A stretch of DNA of 64,000 nucleotides, taken from assembly GCA_041659805.1 (NCBI GenBank), contig JBAZXP010000001.1:192589-256588 (forward strand), given 5' to 3'. This DNA is from Microgenomates group bacterium (GTDB lineage: Bacteria > Patescibacteriota > Microgenomatia > Daviesbacterales > UBA10151). Position numbers and translations under genes: made by a program. Of the stretch, positions 12,954 through 30,966 are shown one piece after another. The notes beneath the pieces were generated by a model. It did no database searches, was not told the DNA's origin, and saw only the letters and a list, made by a program, of their open reading frames with translations. Every line of letters begins with the position of its first letter. Positions within the stretch are counted from its first letter, which is position 1.

Positions 12954-13028
12954 GGAATGAAGTCATTATACCTTAAAGATAGTTGGCTCGTCTTGCAAAC
13001 AAAATAGGTTATTGTTAATCTAAAGGTA

Positions 13029-13439
13029 ATGTCCTTCTTATTAAAAACCATTACTTTAGTATTTTTTTCCCTAATTTTTCTTTACTCTTTTCAGCCTGTT
13101 TTTGCTGAAGCAGCTCCAGGAGGAGCAGGTCAACCTTGTCGCTATGAAGGTTCTGATGGCATTTTTACTGCGCTAGGTTGTGTGCCTGTTGAACCCTCAA
13201 AGTTTATTATGGCTGTCTCCCGACTGCTAGCCGGAGCTGGCGGGGGAGTTGCCTTACTATTGATGATTGCAGGGGCTTTTCGGATGATAACTTCCGGTGG
13301 TAATCCCGATGCAGTCAAAGCCGGATCAGAACAGTTTACTTCCGCCTTAATCGGCTTACTGTTCATTATTTTTGCTACACTGTTATTAAAGGTTATCGGG
13401 GTAGATATACTAAACCTACCTGGATTTGGAACAACATAA
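13029..13439 (+). CDS. VirB2/TrbC-like mini-protein, paralog 1 (signal peptide, two Cys, two TM helices around an SGGNPDAVKAG loop)
   Basis: Topology and the loop motif MITSGGNPDAVKAGSEQFTSALIGLLFIIFATLLL are shared with the five following ORFs. Confidence 0.55.
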   Translation: MSFLLKTITLVFFSLIFLYSFQPVFAEAAPGGAGQPCRYEGSDGIFTALGCVPVEPSKFIMAVSRLLAGAGGGVALLLMIAGAFRMITSGGNPDAVKAGSEQFTSALIGLLFIIFATLLLKVIGVDILNLPGFGTT

Positions 13440-13441
13440 TT

Positions 13442-13801
13442 ATGACACAACTACTAGCTCAAAAATTACAACTTCCCGGAGGAACAGAGGTAACATTACC
13501 TGTCGGAGGCAATTCTGCCATTGCAAGTCCCACAATCGGGGGAATCATCACTCCGGCGTTAGAGGCTGTTTTTTTGATCGCTTCTGTTTTAATGTTTGTC
13601 TGGATGGTTTGGGGAATCTTCCAATATATTTTTGCCGGCGGTGAAAAAGAAAAATTAGCCAAAGCCAGATCCCGGATTACCTGGGCTATAGTTGGTTTTA
13701 TTATTGTGCTACTTGCCTTTACTCTTTCCAGATATATACAAGAAATTTTCCCAGCTAGATCAGTGCCTATCACACCTATAACTGAACCGACAAATGATTG
13801 A
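13442..13801 (+). CDS. VirB2/TrbC-like mini-protein, paralog 2
   Basis: IFAGGEKEKLAKARSRITWAIVGFIIVLLAF, starting 3 nt after paralog 1. Confidence 0.55.
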   Translation: MTQLLAQKLQLPGGTEVTLPVGGNSAIASPTIGGIITPALEAVFLIASVLMFVWMVWGIFQYIFAGGEKEKLAKARSRITWAIVGFIIVLLAFTLSRYIQEIFPARSVPITPITEPTND

Positions 13802-14084
13802 TTTAGGACAACAATTTGGTTTTGCACTTCCAACGCTTGGTGCTGGTTTTAACCGGCTGGTCATGCCGGCTTTTGAAATTGCCGGTGTGGCAGTGATTAT
13901 TTACCTGCTTATAGGGGGGATTAAATATATGATCTCTGCAGGAGACAAGAATGCTGTTGCCTCCGCCCAACAAATGATAACTCATGCTATTATTGGTTTT
14001 ATTTTATTGATATTATTATTTGTAATAGTACAATTTGTACCGGAATTTTTTGGAGCTGGCGCACTCAGGATAATCGGAAGATGA
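13794..14084 (+). CDS. VirB2/TrbC-like mini-protein, paralog 3
   Basis: MISAGDKNAVASAQQMITHAIIGFILLILLFVIV. Overlaps its neighbours by 8 and 4 nt. Confidence 0.5.
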   Translation: MIDLGQQFGFALPTLGAGFNRLVMPAFEIAGVAVIIYLLIGGIKYMISAGDKNAVASAQQMITHAIIGFILLILLFVIVQFVPEFFGAGALRIIGR

Positions 14085-14419
14085 ACAAATTATTAGCAGC
14101 GGATTTTTCAAATATTATAGGAACAATTTCTCCTCCTGCAGCAATTAAACCCTTAGTGGACCAAGGTGGCCAAGGAGGCCTTAACACTGTTTTAAGAAAT
14201 GGTATTACCTTAATCTATCAAATAGCAATTGTTTTATTTCTTCTAATGATTCTTTTTAGCGCATTACAATGGATTATCTCCGGTGGAGAAAAAGAAAAGA
14301 TTGCTGCTGCCAGAGGAAGACTGACCAGCGCAGTGATTGGATTAGTAATCTTAGGTTTGGCTTGGGTGATTGTTTCTGTTTTAGGAACTATCACCGGAAT
14401 TAAACTGGGAGGAGTATAA
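14081..14419 (+). CDS. VirB2/TrbC-like mini-protein, paralog 4
   Basis: QWIISGGEKEKIAAARGRLTSAVIGLVILGLAWVIV. Confidence 0.55.
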   Translation: MNKLLAADFSNIIGTISPPAAIKPLVDQGGQGGLNTVLRNGITLIYQIAIVLFLLMILFSALQWIISGGEKEKIAAARGRLTSAVIGLVILGLAWVIVSVLGTITGIKLGGV

Positions 14420-14468
14420 AACTAACCACTCACTTGACAAGGTTTTTATTCTGTGCAAACATTAATTT

Positions 14469-14813
14469 ATGAGTCCTACACCAATTCCAACATTTAGCTT
14501 AAGTAATCTTGGTGTTGGCATTGCCAGCAATACCCCTATCGGAGACATTATTGGTAATGCTATCCGAATCATCATCATTATCTCTTTAATCGCAGTTTTA
14601 GCAATGTTAATCTTCGGAGCTTTTCAATGGATCATCTCAGGTGGTGAAAAAGAAAAGGTTGCTGCTGCCAGAGGAAGAATTACCAATGCCTTAATCGGAC
14701 TGGCCATTTTAGGCTTAGCTTTCGTGATTGTTACAGTAGCCGGTACTTTAGTCGGTATTAATATTTTTGAAAATATTCAAATCCCAAGCTTAGGTGATAC
14801 AACCGCAAGGTAA
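14469..14813 (+). CDS. VirB2/TrbC-like mini-protein, paralog 5
   Basis: QWIISGGEKEKVAAARGRITNALIGLAILGLAFVIV, nearly identical to the loop of paralog 4. Confidence 0.55.
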   Translation: MSPTPIPTFSLSNLGVGIASNTPIGDIIGNAIRIIIIISLIAVLAMLIFGAFQWIISGGEKEKVAAARGRITNALIGLAILGLAFVIVTVAGTLVGINIFENIQIPSLGDTTAR

Positions 14814-14855
14814 TTCTTCCTTGACCTAATTTCTTCTTTTTAGTACTGTTAAGGT

Positions 14856-15221
14856 ATGAAAAAATATCTGTCCTTTATCTTTTCTGTACTATCTCTTTTA
14901 CTCTCTGCACCCGCTTATGCAGCCACTACAGTAAATCCTCTTCCTGCCGGAAAGGATCAATTAATACAACTTATTACCAGAATTATTAATCTGGCAGCTG
15001 AGGCTGCATTCACTGTTTTGTTAATCATGATTATTTACGCAGGAATTAAGTTTCTAACTTCCGGTGGAGACCCGAAAGCAATCGGAGCAGCTTCTGGCAC
15101 TATCACATGGGCTCTTCTTGGTATTTTGTTCATGGCTATAGGTTGGTTATTCTTATTATTGATTAAAAATTTCACTGGCATTGACGTGACTAAATTCTGT
15201 CTTGATTTTCGTGGCTGTTAG
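14856..15221 (+). CDS. VirB2/TrbC-like mini-protein, paralog 6 (clear signal peptide ending AYA)
   Basis: LTSGGDPKAIGAASGTITWALLGILFMAIGWLFLL. Confidence 0.55.
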   Translation: MKKYLSFIFSVLSLLLSAPAYAATTVNPLPAGKDQLIQLITRIINLAAEAAFTVLLIMIIYAGIKFLTSGGDPKAIGAASGTITWALLGILFMAIGWLFLLLIKNFTGIDVTKFCLDFRGC

Positions 15222-15230
15222 TAATTACCA

Positions 15231-17336
15231 ATGAAATACCTGCCTTTGACCCTCTTACTTCTGATAAGTTGTTTTTTTTACATATTCCCTGGTGCAGTTA
15301 AAGCAGATGAATGTACCGGTAAAAATGTCGGCGATGCTTGTGGTGCATTCATAAGACAAATTGATGCCAACAATTGCATGCCATGCCATGGTAGCTGTAT
15401 AAACAGTGGCAGCACTTTATCTTGTAGTATGGCCGGAGGTAATGTCGGTTGTTCTCCGCAATATGCCTGCAGCGGGGTTAACCCTACCCCAACACCAATC
15501 ACTGCTCCACCCCAAGCTCAACAAGGAACTATTATTGGGGCACAAATTCCGCTTGAACAAGCACAAAGCACTATTAATCGAATGGTCCCTTCACAATATA
15601 GTTTCCAATGGCTTAAATATCAATTTTCATTAGGAAGTGGACAGAACTTAGGAGAGGCTGTAACAGCCGCAAAATCGTCTGCTGCCGGAGGAGGAAGGAA
15701 TTATAGCGTCTTGGTTTCAGTGGCAAAAAACGGTGCAGGAATTGAAACCCTAAAAAATCCTGATACTTACCCTCCTGAACAAGCTCCTGAATACTATACC
15801 CACAAATATTGTCCGTATAATGAAGAACTGGAAACATATTCTGTCAACCCTCATAATTGCGGCACTGACCTTGTTAGTGGAGAACCTCAAACCTGCTATG
15901 ATTCACAAACTGCTCAACCAAAATCAGATAACGGTTATATAAAATTCAGAGATCAGATGGAGGCATTAGCCTCAACTTTAAATTCATTAGGAGTTGAGGC
16001 GGTTGAAATCTGGAATGAGCCTAACTTAGCAGTGGAATGGACTAATCAGGGACTTGGTCCAATCAGCCCCCAAAATTATGCAAATTTTTTTATCTGTGGA
16101 GCTAAAGGCCTTAAAAAAGGTGGCTACAATGGGAAAATTATTACTGCAGCACCCTCTCCCGGTGCAGGTGGAACAGGAAATATGGATGATCTGGCTTTTT
16201 TTGATGCTTTTTACAATGAACTTAATTCCCAGGGTCAATTAGGATTAGTTGATGCTTATGGGTGGCATGGGAATGTAACAAGAGATATCTCACCCACCAG
16301 CAGTGATGTAAACGGATTTCAAAGATTCTCAAGGATACTTGGCAAAGGTAAACCTGTTTGGCTAACAGAATTTGGTTGGGATAGAAGTATTTTACCGGGA
16401 TCAGAAGAACAAAAGAGACAAAAACAGGGTCTTTATATTGCCCAGGCTTATGGCGTAATTAACAGCAACTTCTTAAATAAAGTTACAGCTATGTTTGTCT
16501 GGAATTTTGGCTTTACCAAAGCAGGGAGGACTGAAGCAGAATTTGTTGATTGGGATATAGAAGGAATTACTCCTCAAGGACGGCTTTGCCAACCAAATGC
16601 TCCCATTGACCCCAGATATAGAGGAGACCGGAGAAGCACCACTTATGTACAGGATAAATCTCTTTCGGATGATGAAATTGTTGCAACTGTGGCGGGCTTA
16701 GCCTTAGTACCAAAGACAGTAATCGAAGACGCCAACCAGAGTGCCAGGACAATTAGTCAAACCAAGGTTGATACCAAAAAAAGCTTTTACAGCAATCTTC
16801 CGTTACTTGGTGATTTTTTGAGCCAAATTGCTAACCTGATCGATTTTTTCCGCTGTATGATTGGTCAATCAGAGTTTTGTAAACCGAATTTATCAATTGG
16901 TATTGCAGAAAAGATAGAAGGAGGAACTGTTCCAGGAAAAAATACAGCCTCATTTGCGTCGGAAGCTCAAATATTAGGACAGGCCGCCATTCCCAATGGT
17001 ATGGAATTAGTTCCTGAAGAAAGAGATTGTAATATAGGATTTCAGGGAGAAGAACCGGATCCCGGTCATATCAGATTAAACACGCTTAGTGAAACAATGG
17101 GAACTACCACTGGCTTTTATGGTAATAATATGCCTGATTTCAAAACTTTAACCCCAGACGATTGGTTAAATATAATAAAAGACAGAATGCAACAGGAAAA
17201 CTTAAATATTGGCAGTAAACTATTTAATCAGGATAAAAGATCCCCTGATTTATATGTCAGAAAACAGGTGATGTGTAAAGGACTATATCCGGAAGGCATT
17301 TGTCCTTTTGAACCTTCCCCTACACCAACCATATAA
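15231..17336 (+). CDS. secreted clan GH-A (GH5-like) glycoside hydrolase with an N-terminal Cys-rich module and PT linker
   Basis: Signal peptide, then about 10 Cys within the first 60 residues after it, then a PTPTPITAPP linker. Catalytic-type motifs VEIWNEPN (acid/base NEP) and VWLTEFGW (nucleophile TE). Confidence 0.6.
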   Translation: MKYLPLTLLLLISCFFYIFPGAVKADECTGKNVGDACGAFIRQIDANNCMPCHGSCINSGSTLSCSMAGGNVGCSPQYACSGVNPTPTPITAPPQAQQGTIIGAQIPLEQAQSTINRMVPSQYSFQWLKYQFSLGSGQNLGEAVTAAKSSAAGGGRNYSVLVSVAKNGAGIETLKNPDTYPPEQAPEYYTHKYCPYNEELETYSVNPHNCGTDLVSGEPQTCYDSQTAQPKSDNGYIKFRDQMEALASTLNSLGVEAVEIWNEPNLAVEWTNQGLGPISPQNYANFFICGAKGLKKGGYNGKIITAAPSPGAGGTGNMDDLAFFDAFYNELNSQGQLGLVDAYGWHGNVTRDISPTSSDVNGFQRFSRILGKGKPVWLTEFGWDRSILPGSEEQKRQKQGLYIAQAYGVINSNFLNKVTAMFVWNFGFTKAGRTEAEFVDWDIEGITPQGRLCQPNAPIDPRYRGDRRSTTYVQDKSLSDDEIVATVAGLALVPKTVIEDANQSARTISQTKVDTKKSFYSNLPLLGDFLSQIANLIDFFRCMIGQSEFCKPNLSIGIAEKIEGGTVPGKNTASFASEAQILGQAAIPNGMELVPEERDCNIGFQGEEPDPGHIRLNTLSETMGTTTGFYGNNMPDFKTLTPDDWLNIIKDRMQQENLNIGSKLFNQDKRSPDLYVRKQVMCKGLYPEGICPFEPSPTPTI

Positions 17337-17384
17337 ATATTCAGTCTAGTTGCAAGAACCTTGTAAATTTTGTACTCTTAAGCT

Positions 17385-19103
17385 ATGTCTGCCCTACTAA
17401 GAAAAGTTGTCGGTTGTCGGTTGTCGGTTATCGGCCTGTTTTTATTTATAATATTTGCAGTTAATTTCTTTATCCTCACTCCATCTGTTTTTGCAGCTGA
17501 TAACTGGCAAAAACTAAACCCTTCTAACTATCAAGACAGAATTGCTACTCAAAGATATTTTACGAATCTGATAGTTGCAGCGAATGTGGCTATGTCCGGG
17601 GAAGATCCTTTAAACGGACCTGCTTACAGCGAAAAGGTTACAGTCACGAGTACTGATGGTGCATACAACATGAATTCAGTCCCCGGTATTGGTCCGGGAG
17701 ATAAGCAAGGAGGGATGATCGGTATGGCAACTAAATCAATCGCTTCTATAATATCCACCCGTCCAACTTCCAGCCAGGAATATCTGGCTAATTTAGGAGA
17801 GAACATTGGAATCGCTCCCAAGCCTGCTTATGCTCAGATTACTGGGTCAGGACAAAATGTCATTGATCCTGTTTTAAAACTTTGGCAGGTCACCAGAAAT
17901 ATTGCCTATACTGGTTTTATTTTGGTCTTCATGGCAGCAGGAGTCATGATCATGTTCCGCCAAAAACTTAATCCTCAAACAGTCATTGGAATTCAACAGG
18001 CATTACCAGGCATTGTGGTCGGTTTAATTTTGGTTACCTTTAGCTATTTTATCGCAGCACTCATTGTTGATTTGTCGTTTGTCGGCACCCGGCTGGTTAC
18101 TGAAATATTTGTGAGTTCAGGAGAAACTAATTACTTCGGATGCACAGTGAAATGTGAAGAGGGTGGAAATCCCAAGCAAAAAAATATAGACGGGCTTCGT
18201 CAAACTTATAAAGATTCCGATGCTTTTAATATGTTTCAAAGAGTTGCTTTAAGAGTAAATAATGTCACTGATGTATTTAGAAATGTCTGGGGAACGCTGA
18301 TCACTAATCCTGATGTCCCACCTGAACCAGAAAGCCAGGAAGCTTTACTGCAAAGACTTAGTGTAACAACACCTCTTCCAGGTGATGAAGCTGCAGTATC
18401 ATTTGCTGGAGCAGGAGGGGCAGTAATCAAAGATCAGGGAATTCAGGGAGTAGTTGCAATGGGTGTTGCAACAATCGCTTCTTTGTTGGTTCCTCTAATC
18501 TTAATGATTGCTTTAATGATTCAATTTATTAAATTAATTATCGCCTTGCTGATATCATATTTACAGATCTTGTTGATGGTTATTTTTGGACCAATCTTAA
18601 TTATGGTTTCTGCCATCCCAGGCAGAGGGGGTGCATTAAGCTACTGGTTAAAAGCTCTTTTTGCAAATGCTTTAGTTTTTCCAGCTGTTTTTGCCGGATT
18701 TTTGTTTGCCGGTTTACTTTTAGAATGGGCTGGTACCAGCGGACCTACTTTTACAGCCAACATGCCTATGTTTGGGGGGTTACATGCTAATGTCCTAAAA
18801 TCATTACTGGCTTTTGGGGTTTTGCTGGGATTACCTGCAATTCCTGATATGGTCAGAGATGCCATGGGAGTTAAAACTCCTCAAGGATTTATGAAAGCAG
18901 CTGTGGGTGGATTTATGGGTGGAATCGGAGGTGCTCAAGCAGGTTATGGTCAGGCTATGCAGCGAACTGGTCTGTCAGCAAGAAAAGAAGCTATGGAGAA
19001 AGCACAACTGGAAACGGCTGCGCACAATCGTCCTGGAGAAGGCGGACCACAAAATACAGGAGAAAGAATATTGTCTTGGTTGCCGAGTGGTGGACGACGT
19101 TAA
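17385..19103 (+). CDS. TrbL/VirB6-like polytopic membrane protein
   Basis: Signal/TM helix, a ~130-aa extracytoplasmic N-domain, about 6 TM helices, and a Gly-rich C-terminal tail (GGFMGGIGGAQAGYGQAMQ) typical of TrbL. Lies in T4SS-like context. Confidence 0.55.
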   Translation: MSALLRKVVGCRLSVIGLFLFIIFAVNFFILTPSVFAADNWQKLNPSNYQDRIATQRYFTNLIVAANVAMSGEDPLNGPAYSEKVTVTSTDGAYNMNSVPGIGPGDKQGGMIGMATKSIASIISTRPTSSQEYLANLGENIGIAPKPAYAQITGSGQNVIDPVLKLWQVTRNIAYTGFILVFMAAGVMIMFRQKLNPQTVIGIQQALPGIVVGLILVTFSYFIAALIVDLSFVGTRLVTEIFVSSGETNYFGCTVKCEEGGNPKQKNIDGLRQTYKDSDAFNMFQRVALRVNNVTDVFRNVWGTLITNPDVPPEPESQEALLQRLSVTTPLPGDEAAVSFAGAGGAVIKDQGIQGVVAMGVATIASLLVPLILMIALMIQFIKLIIALLISYLQILLMVIFGPILIMVSAIPGRGGALSYWLKALFANALVFPAVFAGFLFAGLLLEWAGTSGPTFTANMPMFGGLHANVLKSLLAFGVLLGLPAIPDMVRDAMGVKTPQGFMKAAVGGFMGGIGGAQAGYGQAMQRTGLSARKEAMEKAQLETAAHNRPGEGGPQNTGERILSWLPSGGRR

Positions 19104-19107
19104 TGGT

Positions 19108-21081
19108 TTATCTGCCTATATCGCTAAACCCTTGTTTAAATATGTGACCCAATACACCTAAAATAAAGCCTATAATGCCATCTTTTACAGTCGACGCCAA
19201 ATTTGCTACTCTCCAATAACGACCGAGCGCTTTTTCTAAAACTTTTTTTCTGGTATCCAAGGTAAAAAACGGTGGCTTGTTTGGATCAGTTAACCCTGCA
19301 AGATCATTTGCCATAGATACAATTTCAGCGTTGTTATATTTTGGTTTGCCTGTCCTTTCTTCTCTCGTGGTTTGGGCAAAATCAATAAAATCAACCGCTA
19401 AGGCTTCTTTTGCCTCATCTTGATTTTTTTTTGAAAAAGCAAAAGCATCCATTAACTTACGTAAAGATTCAACAGTTGGATTCCTTAAATAGCTTTCAGA
19501 TGTCTTGGTTAAAGCATCTCGCACACCTTCTGCACCCTGAACACATCTACTAGCCCAAAGGCCCATTAAACCTCTCCCCATTGGACTAAAATCACGACCT
19601 TCCAATTTTTTAAAATCTACTCGGCCAACCTTACCGCCCGCATTATGATCTTTTCTGTCTAACCATTCCATTCCTGGTACACCATATTTAATAAAACCAC
19701 TTTCTTTTTCAAACAGACTTGCAACCCCTTCATTTCTGGTAAAAAAATCTCCCCCATAACAATCAACCTTATTAATTAATTGAACATGAGCATGTATTGT
19801 TGCCTGTTCTTTAATGACCAAATCACGCTGTTTCATGGTTCTTCTGGTATCATAATCACAGCCATCGCCTCCTCCTATCCAATCAAACTTTACCTCTCTT
19901 TTATGTTGTTTACCATCAGGGTCAGTAACATAATATACAGCGCCATTAAGCTTTTTTCCTTCATAATAATCGTCTGTAATACGAAGTTCTTCTGGTATTG
20001 GCTCTAATACCGGTAATTCAGGAAGGGGTGTTTTATTTTCTACTGCGTCTTCTAGATCTTTTTTATATTTTCGATATTCTGCTATCTGTCTTTTTTGATA
20101 TATAGACCATTTGCTTTCTGCAACCCATACATCCTTACCGTCTTTGTCTTTTTTCTTTTCCGTAAACACCATAATTCCTTTATCAACCAAAGAATCAAAC
20201 ATCACAGCCCGGCAAGTAAAGCGGAACATTCTTTCTGCTAAAAGTTGTGCTGCTGCATAATCTTCTGGTTTACCTCCAAATTCTTTGACTAAATGTCCCT
20301 GAACTTTTGCGGCAAACAACGGTCTGTTCTCAAACGCACTAAAAACAGTAAATTCTTCGCCGTGTTCCTCGTAATATTGCAGGGCCTGAATAAAAGGATT
20401 AAATTCTGTTTCTGTTTTTGGACTAATTTGTTTCATTCCATAGATGGCAGTGAAGTGTTCTGGCTGCAGTTTTTCCTGAGCAGCTTTTATTACCACATTA
20501 AGATCAGAGGAGTTTTCATATTGCAGAGAAATCTCACGGAAAATCATTCTGGCTTCTACTTCTTCCAGCATATTTTTTGCTTCATCTTGCATATTTTTTG
20601 CTTCAGAATACGCCCTTTTTTCTTCATCCGTCTCTCCTAAAGGAATTTCTTCCCCTTTTAAGCTGCCTAAAATTGAATTTATTCGGGTATACTCAGTAGT
20701 AATTTGTTGGCTGAGACTGCCTTTTTCCAGTTCTATTCTGCTTAAAAGAGCTCTGGTCCTTTTGCGGGCTACTTCCGCATCCTTTGGCCAATAAACCCAC
20801 ATTTGGCGTTGCATTTGATCAAAAATTCTAACTGATTTAAACCCCGGTTTTTCAGGAAGCGGGGAATATCTTTCCACTATTTCCCAAGGCAGAAGCCTTG
20901 GATCTACCTCACGACGTCCGGTATAAGGATCAATTGTTTCCTCATCTTCTATATCTACATGGGGGGTTGCAGCGCGTCTTTCCTCTGCAGGCCTAGCTGC
21001 CGCTGCTTCTGTGGGTGGTATTCCTCCTGTTTCAGGTCCTGGACCTGTTCCTCCATCTGGCATAATTCTTTCTCTTTCCAT
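19108..21081 (-). CDS. large soluble protein of unknown function (657 aa); the first ~50 codons are markedly GC-rich and Pro/Gly/Ala/Glu-rich
   Basis: Long uninterrupted ORF with no recognisable P-loop or HUH motifs. N-terminus MERERIMPDGGTGPGPETGGIPPTEAAAARPAEERRAATP. Confidence 0.6.
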   Translation of the reverse strand: MERERIMPDGGTGPGPETGGIPPTEAAAARPAEERRAATPHVDIEDEETIDPYTGRREVDPRLLPWEIVERYSPLPEKPGFKSVRIFDQMQRQMWVYWPKDAEVARKRTRALLSRIELEKGSLSQQITTEYTRINSILGSLKGEEIPLGETDEEKRAYSEAKNMQDEAKNMLEEVEARMIFREISLQYENSSDLNVVIKAAQEKLQPEHFTAIYGMKQISPKTETEFNPFIQALQYYEEHGEEFTVFSAFENRPLFAAKVQGHLVKEFGGKPEDYAAAQLLAERMFRFTCRAVMFDSLVDKGIMVFTEKKKDKDGKDVWVAESKWSIYQKRQIAEYRKYKKDLEDAVENKTPLPELPVLEPIPEELRITDDYYEGKKLNGAVYYVTDPDGKQHKREVKFDWIGGGDGCDYDTRRTMKQRDLVIKEQATIHAHVQLINKVDCYGGDFFTRNEGVASLFEKESGFIKYGVPGMEWLDRKDHNAGGKVGRVDFKKLEGRDFSPMGRGLMGLWASRCVQGAEGVRDALTKTSESYLRNPTVESLRKLMDAFAFSKKNQDEAKEALAVDFIDFAQTTREERTGKPKYNNAEIVSMANDLAGLTDPNKPPFFTLDTRKKVLEKALGRYWRVANLASTVKDGIIGFILGVLGHIFKQGFSDIGR

Positions 21082-21171
21082 AAACCCTCCTTTTCTTAAC
21101 CCAAGCCTAAAAATTGCCTGAATTATATCCTAAAGCAGAGCTTATATCAAATTTAGTATAGCACAACTAAT

Positions 21172-22203
21172 CTATGCTGCCTGCCCTGGAGACCAACCGC
21201 AAACCCTGTCTTCCCCATCCTCTCCTTTAATCCTCCCAGGACAACTGGTAAGCTCTCCTCTTTCCATTCTTTTCTCTTCATCAGGACCGGGCTCCCAGCC
21301 ACACTTTCGGCATCTGACTTTCTCGCAACCTGTACTCACTTCCTGGGAATTCCCGGCAAAAACATTAAAAGCAGTATTGGCTTTAGGTGGACAGCTGGAA
21401 CCTCTATTTCCGACCATACCGGATCTTCCTGCTATATTTACAAATTTTTCCACATTAACCCTGCCTGTATCAGCTGCTGTTTGTTGATATATATCCAAAG
21501 CCTGATTTACTGTTTGTTGCTTTAAGATTAAATCTTCACCGTTTCTGACTTGTCTGACCTGCTTTAAGGAAATATCAGGCAACAGCTCCTCTAATATATA
21601 AGTCCAGTCGCAATTATCACTTAATTCAAGAGGAATAGACCGCACTTCGTCATTTGATGAAAAATACGGCTTATTATGAGAATAATTCGCCAAACCCCGG
21701 GCAAACTCCAAACATTTAGCTTCTTTTATATCCAAAACAATGGCCCTGTTAAATAAAATCTGTTTCCCGTCTTGTTCCCTGATTTCACTGACAATAATCT
21801 TAGAAACCGAATAGGCTCCAGCCTCTGGTGGACTAACCCAGGCAATAACGCCTGACTTTTTACCCTTAACTATCTTTTGTATACTGTCAAAAGCCTGAAA
21901 TTCTAACTCTCCGACTTTGGAATCTCGTAAAATAACTTCTTCTACTAATTTACCGGTAACAGGGGAAAGAAGTTTACCATCTTCACGGATTGTATAAAAG
22001 TAAGGATCAGGAATTCTTTTTGTTTCCATGCATAAAGAAGCAACCTCTTCCGCAAATTGAGTTTTTGGCTTGCCCTCCCAGGCGCGGGCGCCATCTCTAA
22101 GCTCCCGAATACCAATACTATTATCTTGAGACGGAATAGAACTACTCTGAGGTCTTAAATGGGCATCTATTGAGGAGTCTGTTAAAGTTTCTAATCTGGT
22201 CAT
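21172..22203 (-). CDS. unknown protein with a C-terminal Cys-rich (zinc-ribbon-like) tail
   Basis: CEKVRCRKCGWEPG...SCPGRIKGEDGEDRVCGW at the C-terminus. No other recognisable motifs. Confidence 0.55.
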   Translation of the reverse strand: MTRLETLTDSSIDAHLRPQSSSIPSQDNSIGIRELRDGARAWEGKPKTQFAEEVASLCMETKRIPDPYFYTIREDGKLLSPVTGKLVEEVILRDSKVGELEFQAFDSIQKIVKGKKSGVIAWVSPPEAGAYSVSKIIVSEIREQDGKQILFNRAIVLDIKEAKCLEFARGLANYSHNKPYFSSNDEVRSIPLELSDNCDWTYILEELLPDISLKQVRQVRNGEDLILKQQTVNQALDIYQQTAADTGRVNVEKFVNIAGRSGMVGNRGSSCPPKANTAFNVFAGNSQEVSTGCEKVRCRKCGWEPGPDEEKRMERGELTSCPGRIKGEDGEDRVCGWSPGQAA

Positions 22204-22245
22204 AGTTTCCTGCTCGGGACAAATGCGGTTCGGTCTCCTGGCTTA

Positions 22246-22330
22246 ATCAGAGTATCGGCATATCAGCAAATCAGCAGATCAGAAATAAATATCTGACACG
22301 CTGACTCGCCGACACACTGACAAACTGAAA
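22246..22330. repeat. imperfect ~40-bp-arm inverted repeat built from 8-bp-periodic units (5 x ATCAG arm, 10-nt AT loop, 5 x CTGAC arm), located in the leader of the minus-strand gene 21172..22203
   Basis: ATCAG at 22246, 22254 (ATCGG), 22262, 22270, 22278. CTGAC at 22293, 22301, 22309 (CCGAC), 22317, 22325. Most arm mismatches are A:C on the plus strand, which become U:G wobbles on the minus strand. Confidence 0.6.
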
Positions 22331-22540
22331 TTACAGTTGCGGCACAGCTCCCGAGTCTCACGGGATTCCCATTTACCTTAACTCTTTTTAACGAGTGGTA
22401 AACCGCCCTTTTAAATTACACAACTATGTTGTTTTTGTCAATTCCCATCATGAAAGCACCAGATACATTAAGAATAGGCTAAATTGATCTCTTTTGAGAT
22501 GCTTGCGAGTAAAGTTTTCACGAGTTATACATAAAGGACT

Positions 22541-23725
22541 ATGGAACCACATCCTATTCCACAAAATGTAACTTCTTTTGAATTCCACTTAGTAGGGGAT
22601 ATGACTCTAAAACAATTTATTTATTTAGGAGCCGGACTCGGTACTGCTTATTTACTATACGCCACACTCTTTTTTTCAATCCCTGTTTTAGCTATCCCAT
22701 TAATCCTTATTTCCAGCGTGCTTGGAATAGCTTTTGCTTTTGTGCCTATTTACGACCGGCCTTTTGATCATTGGGTTGGTGCTTTTTTCAGAGCTGTTTA
22801 TTCACCGACAAAGGGTTCCTTTAAACTAAGATCTAATCCTAAGTTAAAGGTTACTCCTAGTGATCCTTTTTTACAAAACAGGCTACAGCTATACCTTTCT
22901 TCCATGGGAATGACTGTTAATCTTTGGGATAAGCAAATTCCGACTGCACCTGCCACATCTACCCCCACTCCAACACCAGCAATCCCTGAGATTAAGGAGA
23001 TTAAAGAATCAGAAAAACAGGCTACCTTAGCAGAAAATATCTTAACTAAAACTTTAGGGAATATCCAAGCCCAAGCTCAACCGGAAAGTACCAGTCATCT
23101 ACCTTCCCAACAGGAATTAACAAATCTAGTGGAGATGGCTAGACAAGCACAAGTCTTGCAGGGAAAAATATCTGATACAGAAAAATTAATTAAACAGATG
23201 ACAACCACAACTAAGCAGACAGAAACAACCCAGATTCAGTCCAGTTTAAAAGCTCTCTTACAACAAACAGAAGAGTTATACCAAAAAACTTCCAGCATGA
23301 CTCAGGCAACAACACATACAACTGCTGCCCAACAACTGCCGCAAACAGTACCGATAACACCGGCCCCACCTATTTTAACTCAACCGGCAGTTGCTCCGAA
23401 GGTAACAATAGTCCAACCTTTGGCACACAAGGAAACGCAGGTAGTTTTAACCTCAACTCCGAATGTTATTAACGGCATTGTCGGTGATGATGCCGGAAAT
23501 TTCCTGGAAAATGTCATCGTAATTATTCACGATAAAGACGGAATGCCTGTCCGGGCTTTAAAAACAAATAAATTAGGCCAGTTTGCAGGAGCGACACCTT
23601 TACCTTTAGGTGTTTATACAATCACCCTGGAAAAAGAACATTTTACCTTTCAAACATTACAAATAACGCTTGATAATTCAGTGCTTGGACCTCTTCGAAT
23701 AGTTGCTAAAAGAGGAGGACAATAA
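22541..23725 (+). CDS. PrgI/VirB3-like two-TM N-terminus fused to a long Gln/Thr-rich coiled region and a C-terminal carboxypeptidase-regulatory-like beta-sandwich domain
   Basis: N-terminus FEFHLVGDMTLKQFIYLGAGLGTAYLLY resembles the PrgI family (FGLTLRQF...). C-terminus GIVGDDAGNFLENVIVIIHDKDGMPVRALKTNKLGQFAGATPLPLGVYTITLEKEHF. RBS AAAGGA before the ATG. Confidence 0.5.
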   Translation: MEPHPIPQNVTSFEFHLVGDMTLKQFIYLGAGLGTAYLLYATLFFSIPVLAIPLILISSVLGIAFAFVPIYDRPFDHWVGAFFRAVYSPTKGSFKLRSNPKLKVTPSDPFLQNRLQLYLSSMGMTVNLWDKQIPTAPATSTPTPTPAIPEIKEIKESEKQATLAENILTKTLGNIQAQAQPESTSHLPSQQELTNLVEMARQAQVLQGKISDTEKLIKQMTTTTKQTETTQIQSSLKALLQQTEELYQKTSSMTQATTHTTAAQQLPQTVPITPAPPILTQPAVAPKVTIVQPLAHKETQVVLTSTPNVINGIVGDDAGNFLENVIVIIHDKDGMPVRALKTNKLGQFAGATPLPLGVYTITLEKEHFTFQTLQITLDNSVLGPLRIVAKRGGQ

Positions 23726-23726
23726 T

Positions 23727-24632
23727 TTGACTACCAGCCAAGAATTTATTCCGATTAGCGATGTCAGTAAAAATTTAGTATTTCAAAAAGACGGATCTGT
23801 AGCAATTATCCTCTCTGTCTCAGCCGTTAATTTCGCACTTCTGTTTGAAACTGAACAAATTTCCATTATTGATTCATTCGCAGGTCTTTTGAATTCCTTA
23901 TCCTTTCCCATTCAAATTGTAATTTATTCCAAAATCATGGACGTTTCTTCCTATTTGCATACAATTGACAATGCCCTTGCCCGTCAAGCCAACCCTCTAC
24001 TTAAATCAATGACCTTAAAATACCGTGATTTTGTGGAAAAAAGCATTAAAGATAACAATGTTCTGGATAAAAGGTTCTATGTTTGCATTAAATTAACGTC
24101 TTTAGAATTAGGTCTACTTCCTTCCAATATGGAAGAAAAAACAAAAAAAGTTACAACACTCCTTGAACCAAGACGGGACCATTTGATCAGACAACTAGAC
24201 CGACTTGGCTTAAAGGCAAAGCAGCTAACAACAGAGGAAATCATTAAATTATTTTATGAAATCTATAACCCGCCCATTACAACAAGTGCTGACTTACCTG
24301 TACAAAGCAATGTCAAGGCTACTCCCTTATTGGAAATCCATCAGCCACCCGCCAACCCTCCGACGGACGCACCAAGGGTAGAAAATAATCTGCCGCCAAA
24401 ACTCCGGCCGATTAAACCGGCTTTGACTCAACCGAGCATTCCAGCACCTGCTGTAAAACCGACAGCTCAAACAACGATTCTTGTTCCGGTCGCCACGGCA
24501 GCACCGGTAGTGACGGTTCCAATCACACAACCGCCAGTCAATCCGACACCAACGCCTATCCTTAACCAAGCCGCTCCGCAACACAATAGCCCTTTTGTGG
24601 TAGAAGAGCTACCTGATGACGATGGATCCTAA
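23727..24632 (+). CDS. VirB4/CagE/TrbE-family protein, N-terminal portion, ending in a Pro/Thr/Ala-rich tail
   Basis: FIPISDVSKNLVFQKDGSVAIILSVSAVNFALLFETEQISIIDSFAGLLNSLSFPIQIVIY matches the N-domain of Gram-positive VirB4 homologs. TTG start at 23727 preceded by an AGAGGAGG RBS. The track ORF begins at an upstream in-frame TTG at 23703. Confidence 0.6.
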   Translation: MTTSQEFIPISDVSKNLVFQKDGSVAIILSVSAVNFALLFETEQISIIDSFAGLLNSLSFPIQIVIYSKIMDVSSYLHTIDNALARQANPLLKSMTLKYRDFVEKSIKDNNVLDKRFYVCIKLTSLELGLLPSNMEEKTKKVTTLLEPRRDHLIRQLDRLGLKAKQLTTEEIIKLFYEIYNPPITTSADLPVQSNVKATPLLEIHQPPANPPTDAPRVENNLPPKLRPIKPALTQPSIPAPAVKPTAQTTILVPVATAAPVVTVPITQPPVNPTPTPILNQAAPQHNSPFVVEELPDDDGS

Positions 24633-26379
24633 GCAAAAACAACTAACATTTGAAGATGCAGTGGCACCCTATGAAATGGAGATGGATTTTTCGTTCCTAA
24701 AAATTAATCACCGCTATTTACGTTCTTTTTTTGTATCTGCTTATCCCCGTTATGTTGAACCAAACTGGCTGGAACCGTTAATTTCTTTTGAACATTCAAT
24801 GATTTTATCCATGTTCATCTACCCCACCAGCTCAGCCGGAATCTTAGATGATTTAAAAAGAAAAATTGCGGAAATGGAGGCCACTATCCAAACTGATCTA
24901 GAACGGGGACGAGTTGTTAATCCAACTGTAACAATAGCACTTGATGACGCCAAGCAGTTACAGGAACAACTAGCTAAAGGCTCGGAACGATTTTTCCAGT
25001 TTAGTTTATATATCGATGTCCCTGCAGATTCCATAGAAGAGCTAAACAATAAATCACAATTAGTCCAATCCACCCTGGGTAGTATTTCAATTACTTCGCA
25101 TCCGTTAATGCTCCAGATGAAAGAAGGGTTTGAAAGCACTTTGCCTTTGGGACAAGACCCTTTGTATTTGGCACATAATATGGATACCACCTCTCTTGCC
25201 ACCACTTTTCCTTTTGTCTCATCAGAGCTTACTTCTCCGGACGGAGTAATCTATGGCATTAATGCACATAACGATTCCTTAATTATTTTTGACAGGTTTA
25301 GTCAGGAAAACGCCAATTCAGTAGTTTTTGCCACAGCCGGAGCCGGAAAATCTTATTTTGTGAAACTGGAATCACTGCGTTCATTGATGCTGGGCGCTGA
25401 AATAATTATCATTGATCCGGAAAAAGAATATGTCGATTTAGCCAATGCTGTGGGAGGAGATTATATTAATTTCTCTACTGCCTCCCCGGTTAAAATCAAT
25501 CCTTTTGACTTGCCTGATATAGCCAACAGCGAAGAAGACGAGTTGGGAAGAAAGATTTTATCTTTAACCGGTTTTTTAAGGTTGGTTTTAGGCGATTTGA
25601 CTGCCAATGAAGTTGCAGTTTTAGACCGGGCTTTAAATGCCACTTATAAATTAAAAGGTATTACTGCCAATGTTTTTAATAAAGCTGACCCTACCAGTAA
25701 ACAAAAAATCGAAGCTCCGTTAATGGAAGATTTATATAAGATTTTAATCGGTATGGAAGACACTATGGCTGGCAGTCTGGCAATCCGTTTGGAAAGGTTT
25801 ATTAAAGGCTCTTTGGCAGGCATTTTTTCTGCCCAATCCAATATCAATATCAATAACCCTTTTACTGTTTTTTCGGTTCGTGAATTGCCTGATCAACTGC
25901 GACCTTTGGCAATGTATTTAATATTGGATTATATTTGGACCAAAATCAGACGCGAGATTAAAAAAAGAATTTTAGTAGTGGATGAAGCCTGGTATATGAT
26001 GAAGTATCCTGATTCAGCTTCTTTTTTAGTGGAGATGGTCAAGCGGTCCCGAAAATATTACCTGGGTGTCACCACCATATCTCAGGATGTGGAAGACTTT
26101 TTAGGGCAAGACCGGGGTAAGGAAATTATCTCCAACTCAGCTATGCAAATTTTATTAAAACAAGCGCCTGTTTCCATTGAAAAAATAGGAGCTGTTTTTA
26201 ATCTGTCTCAAGGAGAAAAAAGACTACTAACCACTGCAGGTGTCGGACAAGGGCTCTTTTTTGCAGGCAATGTGCATATTGCCATGTCAATTGTGGCCTC
26301 AGATGAAGAACATCAGCTGATCACTACTAACCCAAGAGAAATTTTAGAACGCCAGGAAAAAGAAAAAGGAGATAAATAG
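24616..26379 (+). CDS. VirB4/CagE/TrbE-family ATPase, central and C-terminal portion
   Basis: AYPRYVEPNWLEPL, Walker A ATAGAGKSYFVK, Walker B RILVVDEAWYMM. Overlaps the upstream ORF by 17 nt in the +1 frame. Confidence 0.8.
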   Translation: MTMDPKQKQLTFEDAVAPYEMEMDFSFLKINHRYLRSFFVSAYPRYVEPNWLEPLISFEHSMILSMFIYPTSSAGILDDLKRKIAEMEATIQTDLERGRVVNPTVTIALDDAKQLQEQLAKGSERFFQFSLYIDVPADSIEELNNKSQLVQSTLGSISITSHPLMLQMKEGFESTLPLGQDPLYLAHNMDTTSLATTFPFVSSELTSPDGVIYGINAHNDSLIIFDRFSQENANSVVFATAGAGKSYFVKLESLRSLMLGAEIIIIDPEKEYVDLANAVGGDYINFSTASPVKINPFDLPDIANSEEDELGRKILSLTGFLRLVLGDLTANEVAVLDRALNATYKLKGITANVFNKADPTSKQKIEAPLMEDLYKILIGMEDTMAGSLAIRLERFIKGSLAGIFSAQSNININNPFTVFSVRELPDQLRPLAMYLILDYIWTKIRREIKKRILVVDEAWYMMKYPDSASFLVEMVKRSRKYYLGVTTISQDVEDFLGQDRGKEIISNSAMQILLKQAPVSIEKIGAVFNLSQGEKRLLTTAGVGQGLFFAGNVHIAMSIVASDEEHQLITTNPREILERQEKEKGDK

Positions 26380-28166
26380 TGGCTGCTTTAAACCCCAGAC
26401 TAATAGAAGACACTATACATTTAATTGAAACATACCAACGAAGCGGAGAAGGGTCTGCTTTTAGAAGGCGCTTTGATATGGCAATTGCCAGAGATGTCAA
26501 CGCCACCTATAAAAACCGGCCTTTAAAATTATATTTCGAGATATTGGCAAGCACCAATGAAGAAAAATTTGGGGACTCTTACAAAGATATCCGCCGGCTC
26601 GTTAAACATGATAACGAAGGAATCATCAAAGAAACACTTCTGAAAGTAAGCCCTAATGATTTAAATAATCTGGCCGACCATTTAGAACAAGCAAAGGAAA
26701 ATATTAATTCAACGACTTACCCAAAGGAGGAGGTCGATGATATTAATAAAATTGAAGCAGATTCCAAAGACCGGATCCAAAAACGAATTGCACATGCAAA
26801 AAGATTAGACCAAACCGAATATCTTGCAGTTACTAAAAAGACCCCAAAAGAAATAGAAAAAGAGGAAGAAGAGGCAGAAGCAGAAACAGGCCCCGGCTCT
26901 TCTCCTGAGCAGAAAAAATCATACAGCCCGGCAACCGAAGAAGAGAAAGCTAGGTTGATGGCAGCCCTGAATACACCAAAAAAAGAAGTTCCCAAGAATA
27001 TATTGGTTGGGCCGAGAGGAGAACCGTTAATAACCATCCCTCAAGAACGATTAATCGAACCGGAGGAGATAACCTTTGAACCAAGAGCTCTTGAGCCAAC
27101 AACCCCATCATTGCCTCAAACACCTGACTTAGGCTTTGCCAGAAGAATTATTAAAACAGGGAAGGTAACGGAAACCGCCGGAGCAGCAGAGGCAGGCATC
27201 AGTTTTACTACAGGAAGAGTGGCGGCAACAGGTGCTGCCAGAGCAGGAGTAATTGCAGCCGAGGGTGGAGCACGGGCTGTTGCCAGATTAGGTGCAGGAG
27301 CTGCTGCCAGAACCGGTGCGGGAGTATTGGCTAAACTAGGATTTTCAGCTGCGACAGGGATAGCTACAGGTGGCGTCGGTTTAGTAATTGGATTAGCTAT
27401 AACCGCAGTCACTACTTTTGGCGATCAAATAAAAAAACTGGGAAAGCTTGTTCTTCAGGTTACAATTGCTATTTTTTGTGTTTTTATTTTAATGTTTTTC
27501 GGGAATTGGGGAGAGAAAATGAACTCTTTACTGCCTCCTTATTCAATTGGGGAGGCTGCAGGTTTACCAACAGCCACACCAACAGGGGCTATTACACCAA
27601 CCCCTACAGGTCCAATAACACCCACCCCAGAAGCCGCTATTGCGAGCTGCCCCATTCCCGGCGGAACAATTACCTGTGGAAGTTTAAGCACTCCCAGAGG
27701 GGGCTGTGCACACTGTAGCGCTGCTTATAAAAGCACGTCTTTTTACCGCGATACATGTGACAGAGACATAAACGGAAGAATAATAGAAAATCGTTGTTTA
27801 TGTGATAAATATCCTGCCACATCTACAGGTCTTGATATTGCAGGAGCAGGAGGGACTCCAATTATATTGCCATCTATTAATAACCATATCGTTGTTTGGA
27901 CCCATCTTTCTCCTGAAGAAGGTAACAGCAACCAGGCAATCCAAAAATTCACAGGCATAGATCAGACTACCGAACAAAGCTATTATTTACAATTTCACCA
28001 TACTAAACCCGGTTCAGGGAGGTCTGGTCAATCAGGACAGGTTGGTGCTAATATTTGTAGTACTACTGCCTGTGGAGAAGAACATGTTCATGTTCAGATA
28101 GGTAATTCCGGTAATAGCCCCGGCAGCACAGGGTGGATGGATGCAGCAGCAACCATGTGTCAATAA
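26379..28166 (+). CDS. membrane protein with a Gly/Ala-rich repeat region and a C-terminal M23/LytM-like peptidase domain (first motif His apparently replaced)
   Basis: GTG start overlapping the upstream TAG. TGxAxAG repeats (AGAAEAGISFTTGRVAATGAARAGVIAAEGGARAVARLGAGAAARTGAG), a TM helix, then STGLDIAGAGGTPIILPS...YYLQFHH...EEHVHVQI, resembling M23 HxGxD / HxH elements. Confidence 0.5.
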   Translation: MAALNPRLIEDTIHLIETYQRSGEGSAFRRRFDMAIARDVNATYKNRPLKLYFEILASTNEEKFGDSYKDIRRLVKHDNEGIIKETLLKVSPNDLNNLADHLEQAKENINSTTYPKEEVDDINKIEADSKDRIQKRIAHAKRLDQTEYLAVTKKTPKEIEKEEEEAEAETGPGSSPEQKKSYSPATEEEKARLMAALNTPKKEVPKNILVGPRGEPLITIPQERLIEPEEITFEPRALEPTTPSLPQTPDLGFARRIIKTGKVTETAGAAEAGISFTTGRVAATGAARAGVIAAEGGARAVARLGAGAAARTGAGVLAKLGFSAATGIATGGVGLVIGLAITAVTTFGDQIKKLGKLVLQVTIAIFCVFILMFFGNWGEKMNSLLPPYSIGEAAGLPTATPTGAITPTPTGPITPTPEAAIASCPIPGGTITCGSLSTPRGGCAHCSAAYKSTSFYRDTCDRDINGRIIENRCLCDKYPATSTGLDIAGAGGTPIILPSINNHIVVWTHLSPEEGNSNQAIQKFTGIDQTTEQSYYLQFHHTKPGSGRSGQSGQVGANICSTTACGEEHVHVQIGNSGNSPGSTGWMDAAATMCQ

Positions 28167-28168
28167 AA

Positions 28169-28672
28169 ATGAATAATAAAGATTTAAAACGGATAATTCT
28201 TATAGGGATAACCAGTTTTTTCGTGGTAATTGTTTTAATCTCGCTTATAATTAGTCAATTTTTTACTGAGAAACAACCTGCTCCATCTACTACTGTTCCA
28301 ATTACCACAATCACTCCTACACAAAAACCTCTCCCGAGCCAATTCGGAATAGAAGAGACTACTCCAAGTGAAGATACTTCTATTATCTATTTTCCTAATC
28401 AACAAATAGGTTTTACTTTTAATAAAAGCGTTGATGCTGATTCCGTGATTTATTCAGTTACTCCAAATGCTCCGGTAAACATTAAGTTAGATATAAACTC
28501 AAACAGAACTGTAGTTTTTACTCCTAAAACAACTTGGCAAAAAGGTATTACAACCATCACAATATTGCCACAAACAAAAGCCCTTGATGGTCAATTATTA
28601 AACCAGTCTTTTGTTTATAAACTTAATTCTGAGTTCCCGTCTAATCCGCCTGCTGACTGGAAAGGTTATTAA
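28169..28672 (+). CDS. N-terminally anchored protein with a bacterial Ig-like (SbsA/Big-like) domain
   Basis: TM helix, a TTVPITTITPTQKP linker, and a beta-rich domain with FTF.. and VVFTP motifs. Start moved to the ATG at 28169, downstream of the previous stop. Confidence 0.45.
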   Translation: MNNKDLKRIILIGITSFFVVIVLISLIISQFFTEKQPAPSTTVPITTITPTQKPLPSQFGIEETTPSEDTSIIYFPNQQIGFTFNKSVDADSVIYSVTPNAPVNIKLDINSNRTVVFTPKTTWQKGITTITILPQTKALDGQLLNQSFVYKLNSEFPSNPPADWKGY

Positions 28673-28675
28673 TAT

Positions 28676-29146
28676 ATGCCGAATTTAAGTATAAAACAAA
28701 AAATTATAGGAATAATTGTAGTTATTGGCACAATATTAATCTTAATTTTTAAAGGAGGAATTTATTCAAAACCAGCTGAGAATTTAGATAAGACTTTTAA
28801 CAATCCCACACCCACAACTATTCAAACTGACACCCCAGAAATCATTTCTACCAGCCCCTCACCTTTAGATAATTCTTATATCTGGGGGACAACAGCAATT
28901 TCAATTACTTTTAATCTACCAATAGAAAACATCCCGGAGCTTAAATATAAATTCGAACCGGCGTCAAACATTAAAACAGATCTTTCAAATGATAATAAAA
29001 CAGTGACGTTTACACCCATTGAACCTTTAAAGCTGGGCTCTGAATATCTTTTAACAATCCCTGCAGAAGCAAAATTTCTGGGTAAAAAAACATTAGGAAA
29101 AAGCTATATTTTTCACATAAGGACGATTGAGTACAAAGGGGTCTAA
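28676..29146 (+). CDS. second N-terminally anchored Ig-like-domain protein (paralogous architecture)
   Basis: TM helix, a PTPTTIQTDTP linker, and ISITFN...VTFTP motifs. Confidence 0.45.
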   Translation: MPNLSIKQKIIGIIVVIGTILILIFKGGIYSKPAENLDKTFNNPTPTTIQTDTPEIISTSPSPLDNSYIWGTTAISITFNLPIENIPELKYKFEPASNIKTDLSNDNKTVTFTPIEPLKLGSEYLLTIPAEAKFLGKKTLGKSYIFHIRTIEYKGV

Positions 29147-30708: not shown

Positions 30709-30818
30709 GCTTATCCACTTACAAAGCAGTTCTAGTTCTCTCTTTATTTATACAGCTGTAGTATTACTAGGGTCTGTTAAGATGTGTATTCACAGCCACA
30801 ACCCAGCTTCAGGTTACT

Positions 30819-30966
30819 TGGGGATAAGGATAAGTGTAAAACTTAAACCTAGTTATCCCCTCTCTTGGACTTTTTTAACCACAACTTTTCGCCTACTCTT
30901 CGTGTGTAAAAAGTATATCACAACTGTGGATAAAGTGGTGGATAACTTTAAGAGTTTTGGGGATAA
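30819..30966. promoter_or_regulatory. cluster of DnaA boxes (candidate oriC part 1) between dnaA and the downstream nuclease/dnaN genes
   Basis: Perfect TGTGGATAA at 30925..30933. One-mismatch GGTGGATAA at 30937..30945. TGGGGATAA at 30819 and 30958. TTATCCCCT at 30853. Confidence 0.6.

Follow-up and report, generated by a model that had tools for sequence, protein, structure and literature searches.

The 64 kb stretch of DNA analysed here (hereafter the window), from the genome of a Microgenomates group bacterium, carries at positions 13029-29146 a block of genes that very probably encodes a type IV secretion system (T4SS) of the Patescibacteria type. We put at about 0.88 the probability that this is a chromosomal, vertically inherited system of Candidatus Daviesbacteria that has been repurposed from the MPF_FATA conjugation machinery of monoderm bacteria. 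The locus is a further example of the already described Patescibacteria T4SS and not a new kind of machine. It encodes a VirB4 ATPase, a TrsD-like protein, a PrgI/VirB3-like protein, VirB2-type pilins and a Big_5 protein, and its chromosomal position is conserved. Its assignment to the T4SS rests on the profile identities of these proteins, on fold evidence, on the intactness of its open reading frames (ORFs), on a conserved split between trsD and virB4, on synteny and on the match with the published literature.

The ORF listing for the block is concordant with independent gene calls on the identical public contig, and every ORF in it is intact. The synteny sample consists of 80 loci from GTDB species genomes of the Microgenomatia; a locus was accepted as Patescibacteria on the strength of its record title or of synteny shared with the other loci, many of the third-party annotation (TPA) titles being generic or inconsistent. 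A public protein, WCV81_00065, is 100% identical to the VirB6-like protein of the block. The nearest relative of the VirB4, with 94% identity, comes from a Daviesbacteria metagenome-assembled genome. A preliminary description of the window, drawn from the sequence itself, had called the block a minimal Gram-positive-type T4SS gene set, and this holds in the sense of a monoderm-type set, as indicated by the NF045971 family of its VirB4 and by its PrgI. Profile searches of the block ORFs confirmed the pilins, PrgI and VirB4 of that description, while its M23 and GH5 assignments fell below threshold.

The VirB4, TrsD-like and PrgI/VirB3-like proteins

Three consecutive genes of the block encode the ATPase, its separate N-terminal domain and a PrgI/VirB3-like protein:

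22541..23725, plus strand: PrgI/VirB3-like membrane protein, 394 aa; PF12666 33.7 bits against a gathering score of 27
23703..24632, plus strand: TrsD-like protein (a separate VirB4 N-terminal domain), 309 aa as the longest ORF, called as 301 aa from 23727
24616..26379, plus strand: VirB4 ATPase of the monoderm (MPF_FATA) type without its N-terminal domain; NF045971 379.7 bits against a cutoff of 325

The VirB4 protein aligns to positions 181-734 of the 752 of NF045971, the CD1110 family, and also matches PF19044 and PF12846. Its Walker A (ATAGAGKS, at residue 239) and Walker B (ILVVDE, at 452) motifs are both in place, and its closest solved structure is the Thermoanaerobacter VirB4 (4ag5, E 1e-46); the initial call of a VirB4-family ATPase with both motifs was thus correct. 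The TrsD-like gene had been overlooked in the original list of components. Its product covers positions 2-170 of the CD1110-type VirB4 and matches the TrsD model NF041427 (E 2e-6) as well as PF11130 and PF26593. The trsD and virB4 genes are separate ORFs in 78 of 79 related loci, mostly with an overlap of 1-4 nt, as is typical of translational coupling. Because this split is so well conserved, we have rejected the idea that the window's virB4 is a pseudogene produced by a frameshift. The PrgI/VirB3-like assignment is likewise upheld by its PF12666 score, although the earlier account was inexact in omitting an extra C-terminal CarboxypepD_reg-like domain (PF13620, 25.9 bits). In the survey of Quinonero-Coronel et al. 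2025 (PMC12102498), the Patescibacteria VirB4 proteins form a distinct clade related to MPF_FATA, TrsD and PrgI/VirB3 are abundant and TrsD is the most abundant T4SS component of all.

Conserved position beside the replication origin

The block is followed directly by the replication genes:

29149-30249, minus strand: dnaN, directly after the block
30256-30708, minus strand: Holliday-junction-resolvase-like gene; PF10107 39.8 bits; small, membrane-anchored product with an archaeal-type endonuclease domain
30711-30966, intergenic: DnaA-box cluster, putative oriC; six boxes with at most one mismatch
30979-32313, minus strand: dnaA; a seventh DnaA box at 31058, inside the 3' end of the gene

Together with the minimum of the cumulative GC skew at 30-32 kb, the DnaA boxes place the end of the block some 1.6 kb from the probable oriC, in accord with the original observation that it abuts dnaN-dnaA/oriC. 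The PF10107 gene, which lies between dnaN and the DnaA-box cluster, was found in Daviesbacteria-like loci only, with 65-87% identity.

This arrangement is well conserved, as a comparison with related Patescibacteria made clear. The genes prgI-trsD-virB4 are adjacent in nearly all of the 80 loci; in most, dnaN-dnaA lies on the opposite strand about 0.1-6 kb past the end of virB4; and in many the pilin arrays and the VirB6-like gene are found upstream of prgI-trsD-virB4. The order prgI-trsD-virB4 ... dnaN-dnaA extends over the Daviesbacteria, Curtissbacteria, Gottesmanbacteria, Woesebacteria and Levybacteria. Such a class-wide order beside dnaN-dnaA implies the vertical inheritance of a chromosomal system and not an integrated conjugative element (ICE). 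In the published survey dnaA, dnaN, rnpA and rpmH are enriched near virB4 in both Microgenomatia and Paceibacteria, which was read as a gene-dosage effect (PMC12102498); the oriC-adjacent position of the present block would similarly give its genes a high dosage.

The Pfam and NCBIfam scans of the window's ORFs, which cover 64 kb of a contig of about 1.13 Mb, found no relaxase, VirD4-type coupling protein (T4CP), VirB11 or integrase/recombinase. A T4CP profile from sister-lineage loci matched only VirB4 in the window, so the reported lack of relaxase, coupling ATPase, VirB11 and integrase was borne out. Nor is the block flanked in the window by the combination of relaxase, T4CP and integrase that would mark an ordinary ICE. 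There is no tRNA within 6.5 kb of the block and, with neither a recombinase family nor a nearby tRNA, no insertion signature was seen in the window, flanking direct repeats not having been searched. The other sizeable ORFs of the window mostly have housekeeping matches in Pfam (for example tRNA synthetases, GroEL, MurB, YidC, TsaD and glycosyltransferases), and a few have no match. Scans for promoter and terminator consensus sequences across the block gave counts at or below those expected by chance.

These data bear on the idea that the block is an ICE, or the decayed remnant of one near the origin, which uses a relaxase and a coupling protein encoded elsewhere. The VirB4 does belong to a family typed on Firmicutes conjugative elements (NF045971), a VirD4-type T4CP lies inside the locus in 22 of the 80 related loci, and the G+C content of the block (0.39-0.43, for positions 12001-28000) is slightly above that of its flanks (0.33-0.39). 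However, the same order beside dnaN-dnaA across the whole class argues for vertical inheritance, neither an integrase nor a relaxase is encoded in the window, no tRNA flanks the block, and the genes are all intact. Moreover, relaxases are known from only 103 Patescibacteria genomes, and only 15 of them are near virB4 (PMC12102498). We consider such an element very improbable. The raised G+C of the block is accompanied by no mobile-element signature and may reflect Ala/Gly-rich membrane proteins.

The pilins and a VirB6-like protein

The block begins with a tandem array of six small ORFs (13029-15221):

13029..13439, plus strand: VirB2-type pilin 1, 136 aa, signal-like N-terminus and two hydrophobic helices; PF18895 (T4SS_pilin) 34.4 bits against a gathering score of 26.6
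13442..13801, plus strand: VirB2-type pilin 2, 119 aa; PF18895 42.8 bits
13794..14084, plus strand: VirB2-type pilin 3, 96 aa; PF18895 29.4 bits
14081..14419, plus strand: VirB2-type pilin 4, 112 aa; PF18895 48.7 bits and a weak TrbC match
14469..14813, plus strand: VirB2-type pilin 5, 114 aa; PF18895 34.0 bits; 57% identical to pilin 4
14856..15221, plus strand: VirB2-type pilin 6, 121 aa; PF18895 24.3 bits, below the gathering score of 26.6; TrbC E 0.003

All but one of the six exceed the gathering score of the Pfam T4SS_pilin family, and the sixth, which is just under it, has an orthologue with 73% identity in another locus of the sample (L001). Each has two hydrophobic helices, forming the two-helix hairpin typical of VirB2, and the original reading of these ORFs as six VirB2/TrbC-like mini-proteins was sound. 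Pairwise identities among the six are 22-57%. Arrays of 2-11 VirB2 genes with a mean identity of about 25% have been reported for Patescibacteria, and especially for Microgenomatia and Saccharimonadia (PMC12102498).

Farther downstream is a gene for a large membrane protein:

17385..19103, plus strand: VirB6-like polytopic membrane protein, 572 aa, about seven transmembrane (TM) helices; identified by structure prediction and two fold searches

This protein gave no match to Pfam, NCBIfam or PDB sequences, either alone or as a family of 71 sequences, so that the initial TrbL/VirB6-like label found no counterpart among sequence profiles for TrbL/VirB6 and is sustained instead by predicted fold and polytopic topology. 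An AlphaFold2 model built on the 71-sequence family alignment had a predicted local distance difference test score (pLDDT) of 76.7 and a predicted template-modelling score of 0.61, and in a Foldseek search with this model four TrwI/VirB6 chains came out on top (E 0.03-0.23, probability 0.96-0.63). Because of these fold matches, the seven or so hydrophobic helices and the conserved place of the gene in the locus, we accept with moderate confidence that the 572-aa protein is VirB6-like. Six of the 71 family members, though not the window protein, have weak TrbC/VirB2 pilin matches (best E 2.6e-5), which hints that some of the family may include a two-helix hairpin resembling that of pilins, or be fused to a pilin.

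Putative wall-active enzymes and Ig-like proteins

Four further plus-strand genes, one following the pilins and three following virB4, encode proteins that may act on, or extend into, the cell envelope:

15231..17336, plus strand: exported clan GH-A glycosidase, 701 aa; PF11790 (Glyco_hydro_cc) 23.1 bits against a gathering score of 21
26379..28166, plus strand: bitopic protein with a divergent M23-like C-terminus, 595 aa; two TM segments at about 326-375, a Pro/Thr linker and a Cys-rich domain at 419-583
28133..28672, plus strand: membrane-anchored Ig-like protein, 179 aa as the longest ORF, called as 149 aa from 28223; one N-terminal TM segment
28676..29146, plus strand: membrane-anchored Big_5 Ig-like protein, 156 aa; PF13205 33.7 bits against a gathering score of 23.6; one N-terminal TM segment

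The first of these has an N-terminal hydrophobic signal or anchor and the catalytic motifs of clan GH-A, WNEPN (262) and LTEFG (379), with the two catalytic glutamates. Homologues occupy the same position in L001, L006, L008 and L009, and a PDB sequence search gave no relative. A secreted GH-A glycosidase, as originally proposed, is therefore in keeping with both PF11790 and the motifs; its designation as "GH5-like" is not, since the GH5 "Cellulase" model scores a sub-threshold 13.7 against 23.5. On this sequence evidence it is moderately supported that the protein is a GH-A glycosidase, and as such it is a candidate functional stand-in for VirB1.

The 595-aa protein, by contrast with its description as an M23-like wall hydrolase, was over-called. 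Its helical N-terminal domain is found downstream of virB4 in eight loci and its C-terminal domain in six. In the alignment of the latter an H, a D and two further H residues are invariant, and M23 enzymes, such as zoocin A, LytM, lysostaphin and SpoIIQ, fill the first eight places among the PDB matches of the family profile, with E values of 0.14-1.7. The Pfam M23 model itself gives 12.1 bits against a gathering score of 28.7, with weak matches in four of the six family members (best E 0.0023). The M23 motifs are represented by the invariant D, the middle H and the final H of HxH; the window protein also has the first H of HxH (EHVHV), at a position that varies within the family. The histidine of HxxxD, four residues before the D, is absent, and an invariant H is found 41 residues upstream instead. 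A divergent M23-like domain is a reasonable lead, as opposed to a demonstrated membership. A canonical Peptidase_M23 protein is encoded elsewhere in the window (54833-55549, minus strand); since it scores 78.5 bits, the standard profile works in this genome and the virB4-adjacent domain is truly divergent. The AlphaFold2 model of the 595-aa protein, made from five sequences, had a pLDDT of 46.8 and was confident for residues 1-150 only; its Foldseek matches, NTF2/VirB8-like over about 45 columns, were discarded in view of the poor model and E values of at least 0.64. Alternative wall hydrolases, including M23, occur across the Patescibacteria (PMC12102498).

Just outside the block and divergent from pilin 1 (11274-12953, minus strand) is a gene for a 559-aa exported SpoIID-domain protein of the peptidoglycan lytic enzyme family (52 bits), the N-terminal half of which is a coiled coil; a homologue with 60% identity is in the same position in L005.

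The two Ig-like anchored proteins of the preliminary description were confirmed, one by its PF13205 match and the other as its paralogue, an iterated profile having grouped 28133-28672 with the Big_5 family. The Big_5 gene at 28676-29146 is kept directly before dnaN in the Daviesbacteria-like loci.

These Ig-like proteins and the six divergent pilins dominate the extracellular parts of the system, which raises the question of whether it is an adhesion or attachment organelle only, with VirB4 as a pilus-assembly motor and no translocation. The lack of a T4CP in the window would suit such an organelle, and pilin diversification fits adaptation to host surfaces (PMC12102498). Nevertheless, Saccharibacteria already have type IV pili for adhesion and motility (PMC12857230), the T4CP retained in the locus by sister lineages implies substrate handling, and the wall hydrolases suggest a penetration of the envelope. 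We judge a purely adhesive role to be rather improbable.

The opposite-strand genes and the coupling-protein slot

Two large genes between the VirB6-like gene and prgI are read in the opposite direction:

19108..21081, minus strand: fast-evolving soluble protein, 657 aa; no TM segment, no P-loop and no signal peptide
21172..22203, minus strand: 343-aa soluble protein that ends in a C4 zinc ribbon; oriented divergently from prgI

They had been regarded as splitting the block, which was not borne out: both belong to the conserved architecture of the locus. The 657-aa protein has no relation in Pfam, NCBIfam or the PDB, and a word-index search returned only two homologues; the gene recurs at this place and in this orientation in seven further Daviesbacteria-like loci. 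Furthermore, a large minus-strand ORF (573-1365 aa, no signal peptide) follows the VirB6-like gene in nearly all of the inspected Microgenomatia loci (L001-L072). An hhalign comparison of the 657-aa protein with the large ORFs that occupy its place in other lineages found no link (probability 0.04), which is a weak negative given the heterogeneous alignment. As judged by these sequences, the large minus-strand ORF appears to diverge so fast that homology between lineages is undetectable.

The zinc-ribbon family is better populated, with 214 representatives at 50% clustering. It corresponds to no Pfam family and its N-terminal domain belongs to no known family; its cysteines are invariant and its matches are to zinc ribbons only. 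Of the five informative contigs with distant members of the family (23-40% identity), four have the gene divergent from prgI-trsD (including L083, L085, L087 and L088), an arrangement that persists even at about 25-35% identity. The protein is a candidate lineage-specific T4SS accessory or regulator.

In the 22 loci with a coupling protein, which are Gottesmanbacteria/Woesebacteria-like, this protein of about 730 aa is encoded beside prgI and divergently from it. That of L019 (5571-7766, minus strand), for example, matches TrwB_AAD_bind with 33.2 bits against a gathering score of 20.5, plus TraG-D_C and DUF87; others include those of L016, L022, L031, L034, L042, L049, L054 and L055. The zinc-ribbon gene of the window and of the Daviesbacteria-like loci thus occupies the slot of the T4CP in these sister lineages. 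It follows from their T4CP that its absence from the locus is a trait of the Daviesbacteria-like lineage and not of the class. The opposite-strand module might then be a substrate-handling part peculiar to Daviesbacteria, the 657-aa protein being an effector and the zinc-ribbon protein either an adaptor that works independently of a T4CP or a regulator of the prgI promoter; we offer this as a speculation that is more probably wrong than right by a wide measure. As lineage-specific candidates for substrate or regulatory roles, the zinc-ribbon and the fast-evolving large proteins could guide work in cultivable relatives.

A possible mode of action

From established T4SS knowledge, the TrsD-like protein and VirB4 would together make up a membrane-associated ATPase tethered by the PrgI/VirB3-like protein, with the VirB6-like protein as the membrane channel or the base of the stalk. 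The six pilins would lie in the membrane as two-helix hairpins, and VirB4 would pull them out for assembly into a pilus or conduit. The part of VirB1 in opening a wall, be it the cell's own or that of the host, would fall to the GH-A glycosidase and the membrane-anchored M23-like protein, and the two small anchored Ig-like proteins may be an envelope-spanning or surface part.

As to what such a machine might be for, the best guide is the T4SS of Southlakia epibionticum (SEML1_0006-0019; Wang et al. 2023, PMC10633639), which resembles Gram-positive conjugative systems, includes several pilins that are themselves essential, lacks any recognizable relaxase or coupling protein and was found by transposon sequencing to be needed for epibiotic growth. 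By extension from this work on Saccharibacteria, the present machine may serve an epibiotic lifestyle, by the export of effectors to a host bacterium or by uptake from it, and not conjugation. The original suggestion of a secretion or host-contact machine in preference to a conjugative element is indeed the more likely one, in the light of both the class-wide synteny and the literature.

A more particular form of uptake would be a ComB-like or Ced-like machine that imports host DNA as a source of nucleotides, with the pilus as the capture device. Patescibacteria lack nucleotide synthesis and an uptake role has been proposed for their T4SS (PMC11665869, PMC12857230), and DNA import requires neither a T4CP nor a relaxase. 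The VirB4 is weakly similar to the archaeal DNA importer CedB (NF041017, E 6.5e-12), but this is to be expected of any VirB4 relative and is far weaker than the similarity to conjugative VirB4 proteins. The cited reviews go no further than stating that S. epibionticum can do without ComEC-dependent competence, which speaks neither for nor against import by the T4SS. We find DNA uptake unlikely.

Several points count against our interpretation of the block as a vertically inherited Patescibacteria-type T4SS with such a role. A VirB8-like component was not identified in the locus, the glycosidase match (PF11790) is barely over threshold, and the M23-like domain, besides missing the canonical histidine of HxxxD, is under every curated threshold. 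Our view is of 64 kb of a contig of about 1.13 Mb, so that a T4CP or relaxase could be encoded elsewhere, and in many Patescibacteria T4CP homologues do lie far from virB4 (PMC12102498).

Comparison with known systems

With the R388 Trw and Agrobacterium VirB systems (MPF_T, of diderms) the locus shares VirB2-like pilins and a VirB6-like stalk or channel protein, the best solved-structure matches of the 572-aa model being TrwI/VirB6 and DotA. It differs from them in that VirB5, VirB7, VirB9, VirB10 and VirB11 are all absent from the locus, VirB8 was not detected and sequence similarity to VirB6/TrbL is undetectable.

The resemblance to the MPF_FATA systems of monoderms (Trs of pGO1/pSK41, Prg of pCF10 and the C. 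difficile CTn-type CD1110) is closer. They have in common the VirB4 family, the split of TrsD and VirB4 (as in pGO1), a PrgI-type VirB3, a polytopic VirB6 analogue, a wall hydrolase (here a candidate) and the lack of an outer-membrane core complex. Unlike these systems, the window has no relaxase, T4CP or PrgB-type adhesin, whereas the locus does have VirB2-type pilins, which are missing from monoderm conjugation systems; it is also chromosomal and vertically inherited, and not on a mobile element.

It is the Patescibacteria systems, the newest members of the T4SS superfamily according to a 2025 review (PMC12857230), that the locus matches best. The claim that its layout is not a described one was wrong, since the same features have been published (PMC10633639, PMC12102498, PMC12857230). 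Like the Patescibacteria T4SS of the first two of these studies, it combines a monoderm-type VirB4, TrsD as a gene of its own, PrgI/VirB3 and a VirB6-like protein with tandem divergent VirB2-like pilins of the PF18895/PF04956 type and candidate non-VirB1 wall hydrolases beside virB4; it has no relaxase, and it is chromosomal, beside dnaA/dnaN, as reported for Microgenomatia and Paceibacteria. Its differences from the published systems are the GH-A glycosidase between the pilins and VirB6, the Cys-rich divergent M23-like domain, the two Big_5 proteins and the Daviesbacteria opposite-strand pair of 657-aa and zinc-ribbon proteins. In the survey of Patescibacteria (PMC12102498), VirB6 was scarce and VirB3 poorly linked to virB4 in the Microgenomatia; here, in contrast, both VirB6 (by structure) and VirB3 were found, syntenic in relatives, though too divergent for the usual profiles. 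In the single species tested so far, epibiotic growth depends on the Patescibacteria T4SS. The present locus adds no new principle. What it does add is the structural identification of a divergent VirB6 and a tight prgI-trsD-virB4 synteny where surveys with hidden Markov models saw poor linkage.

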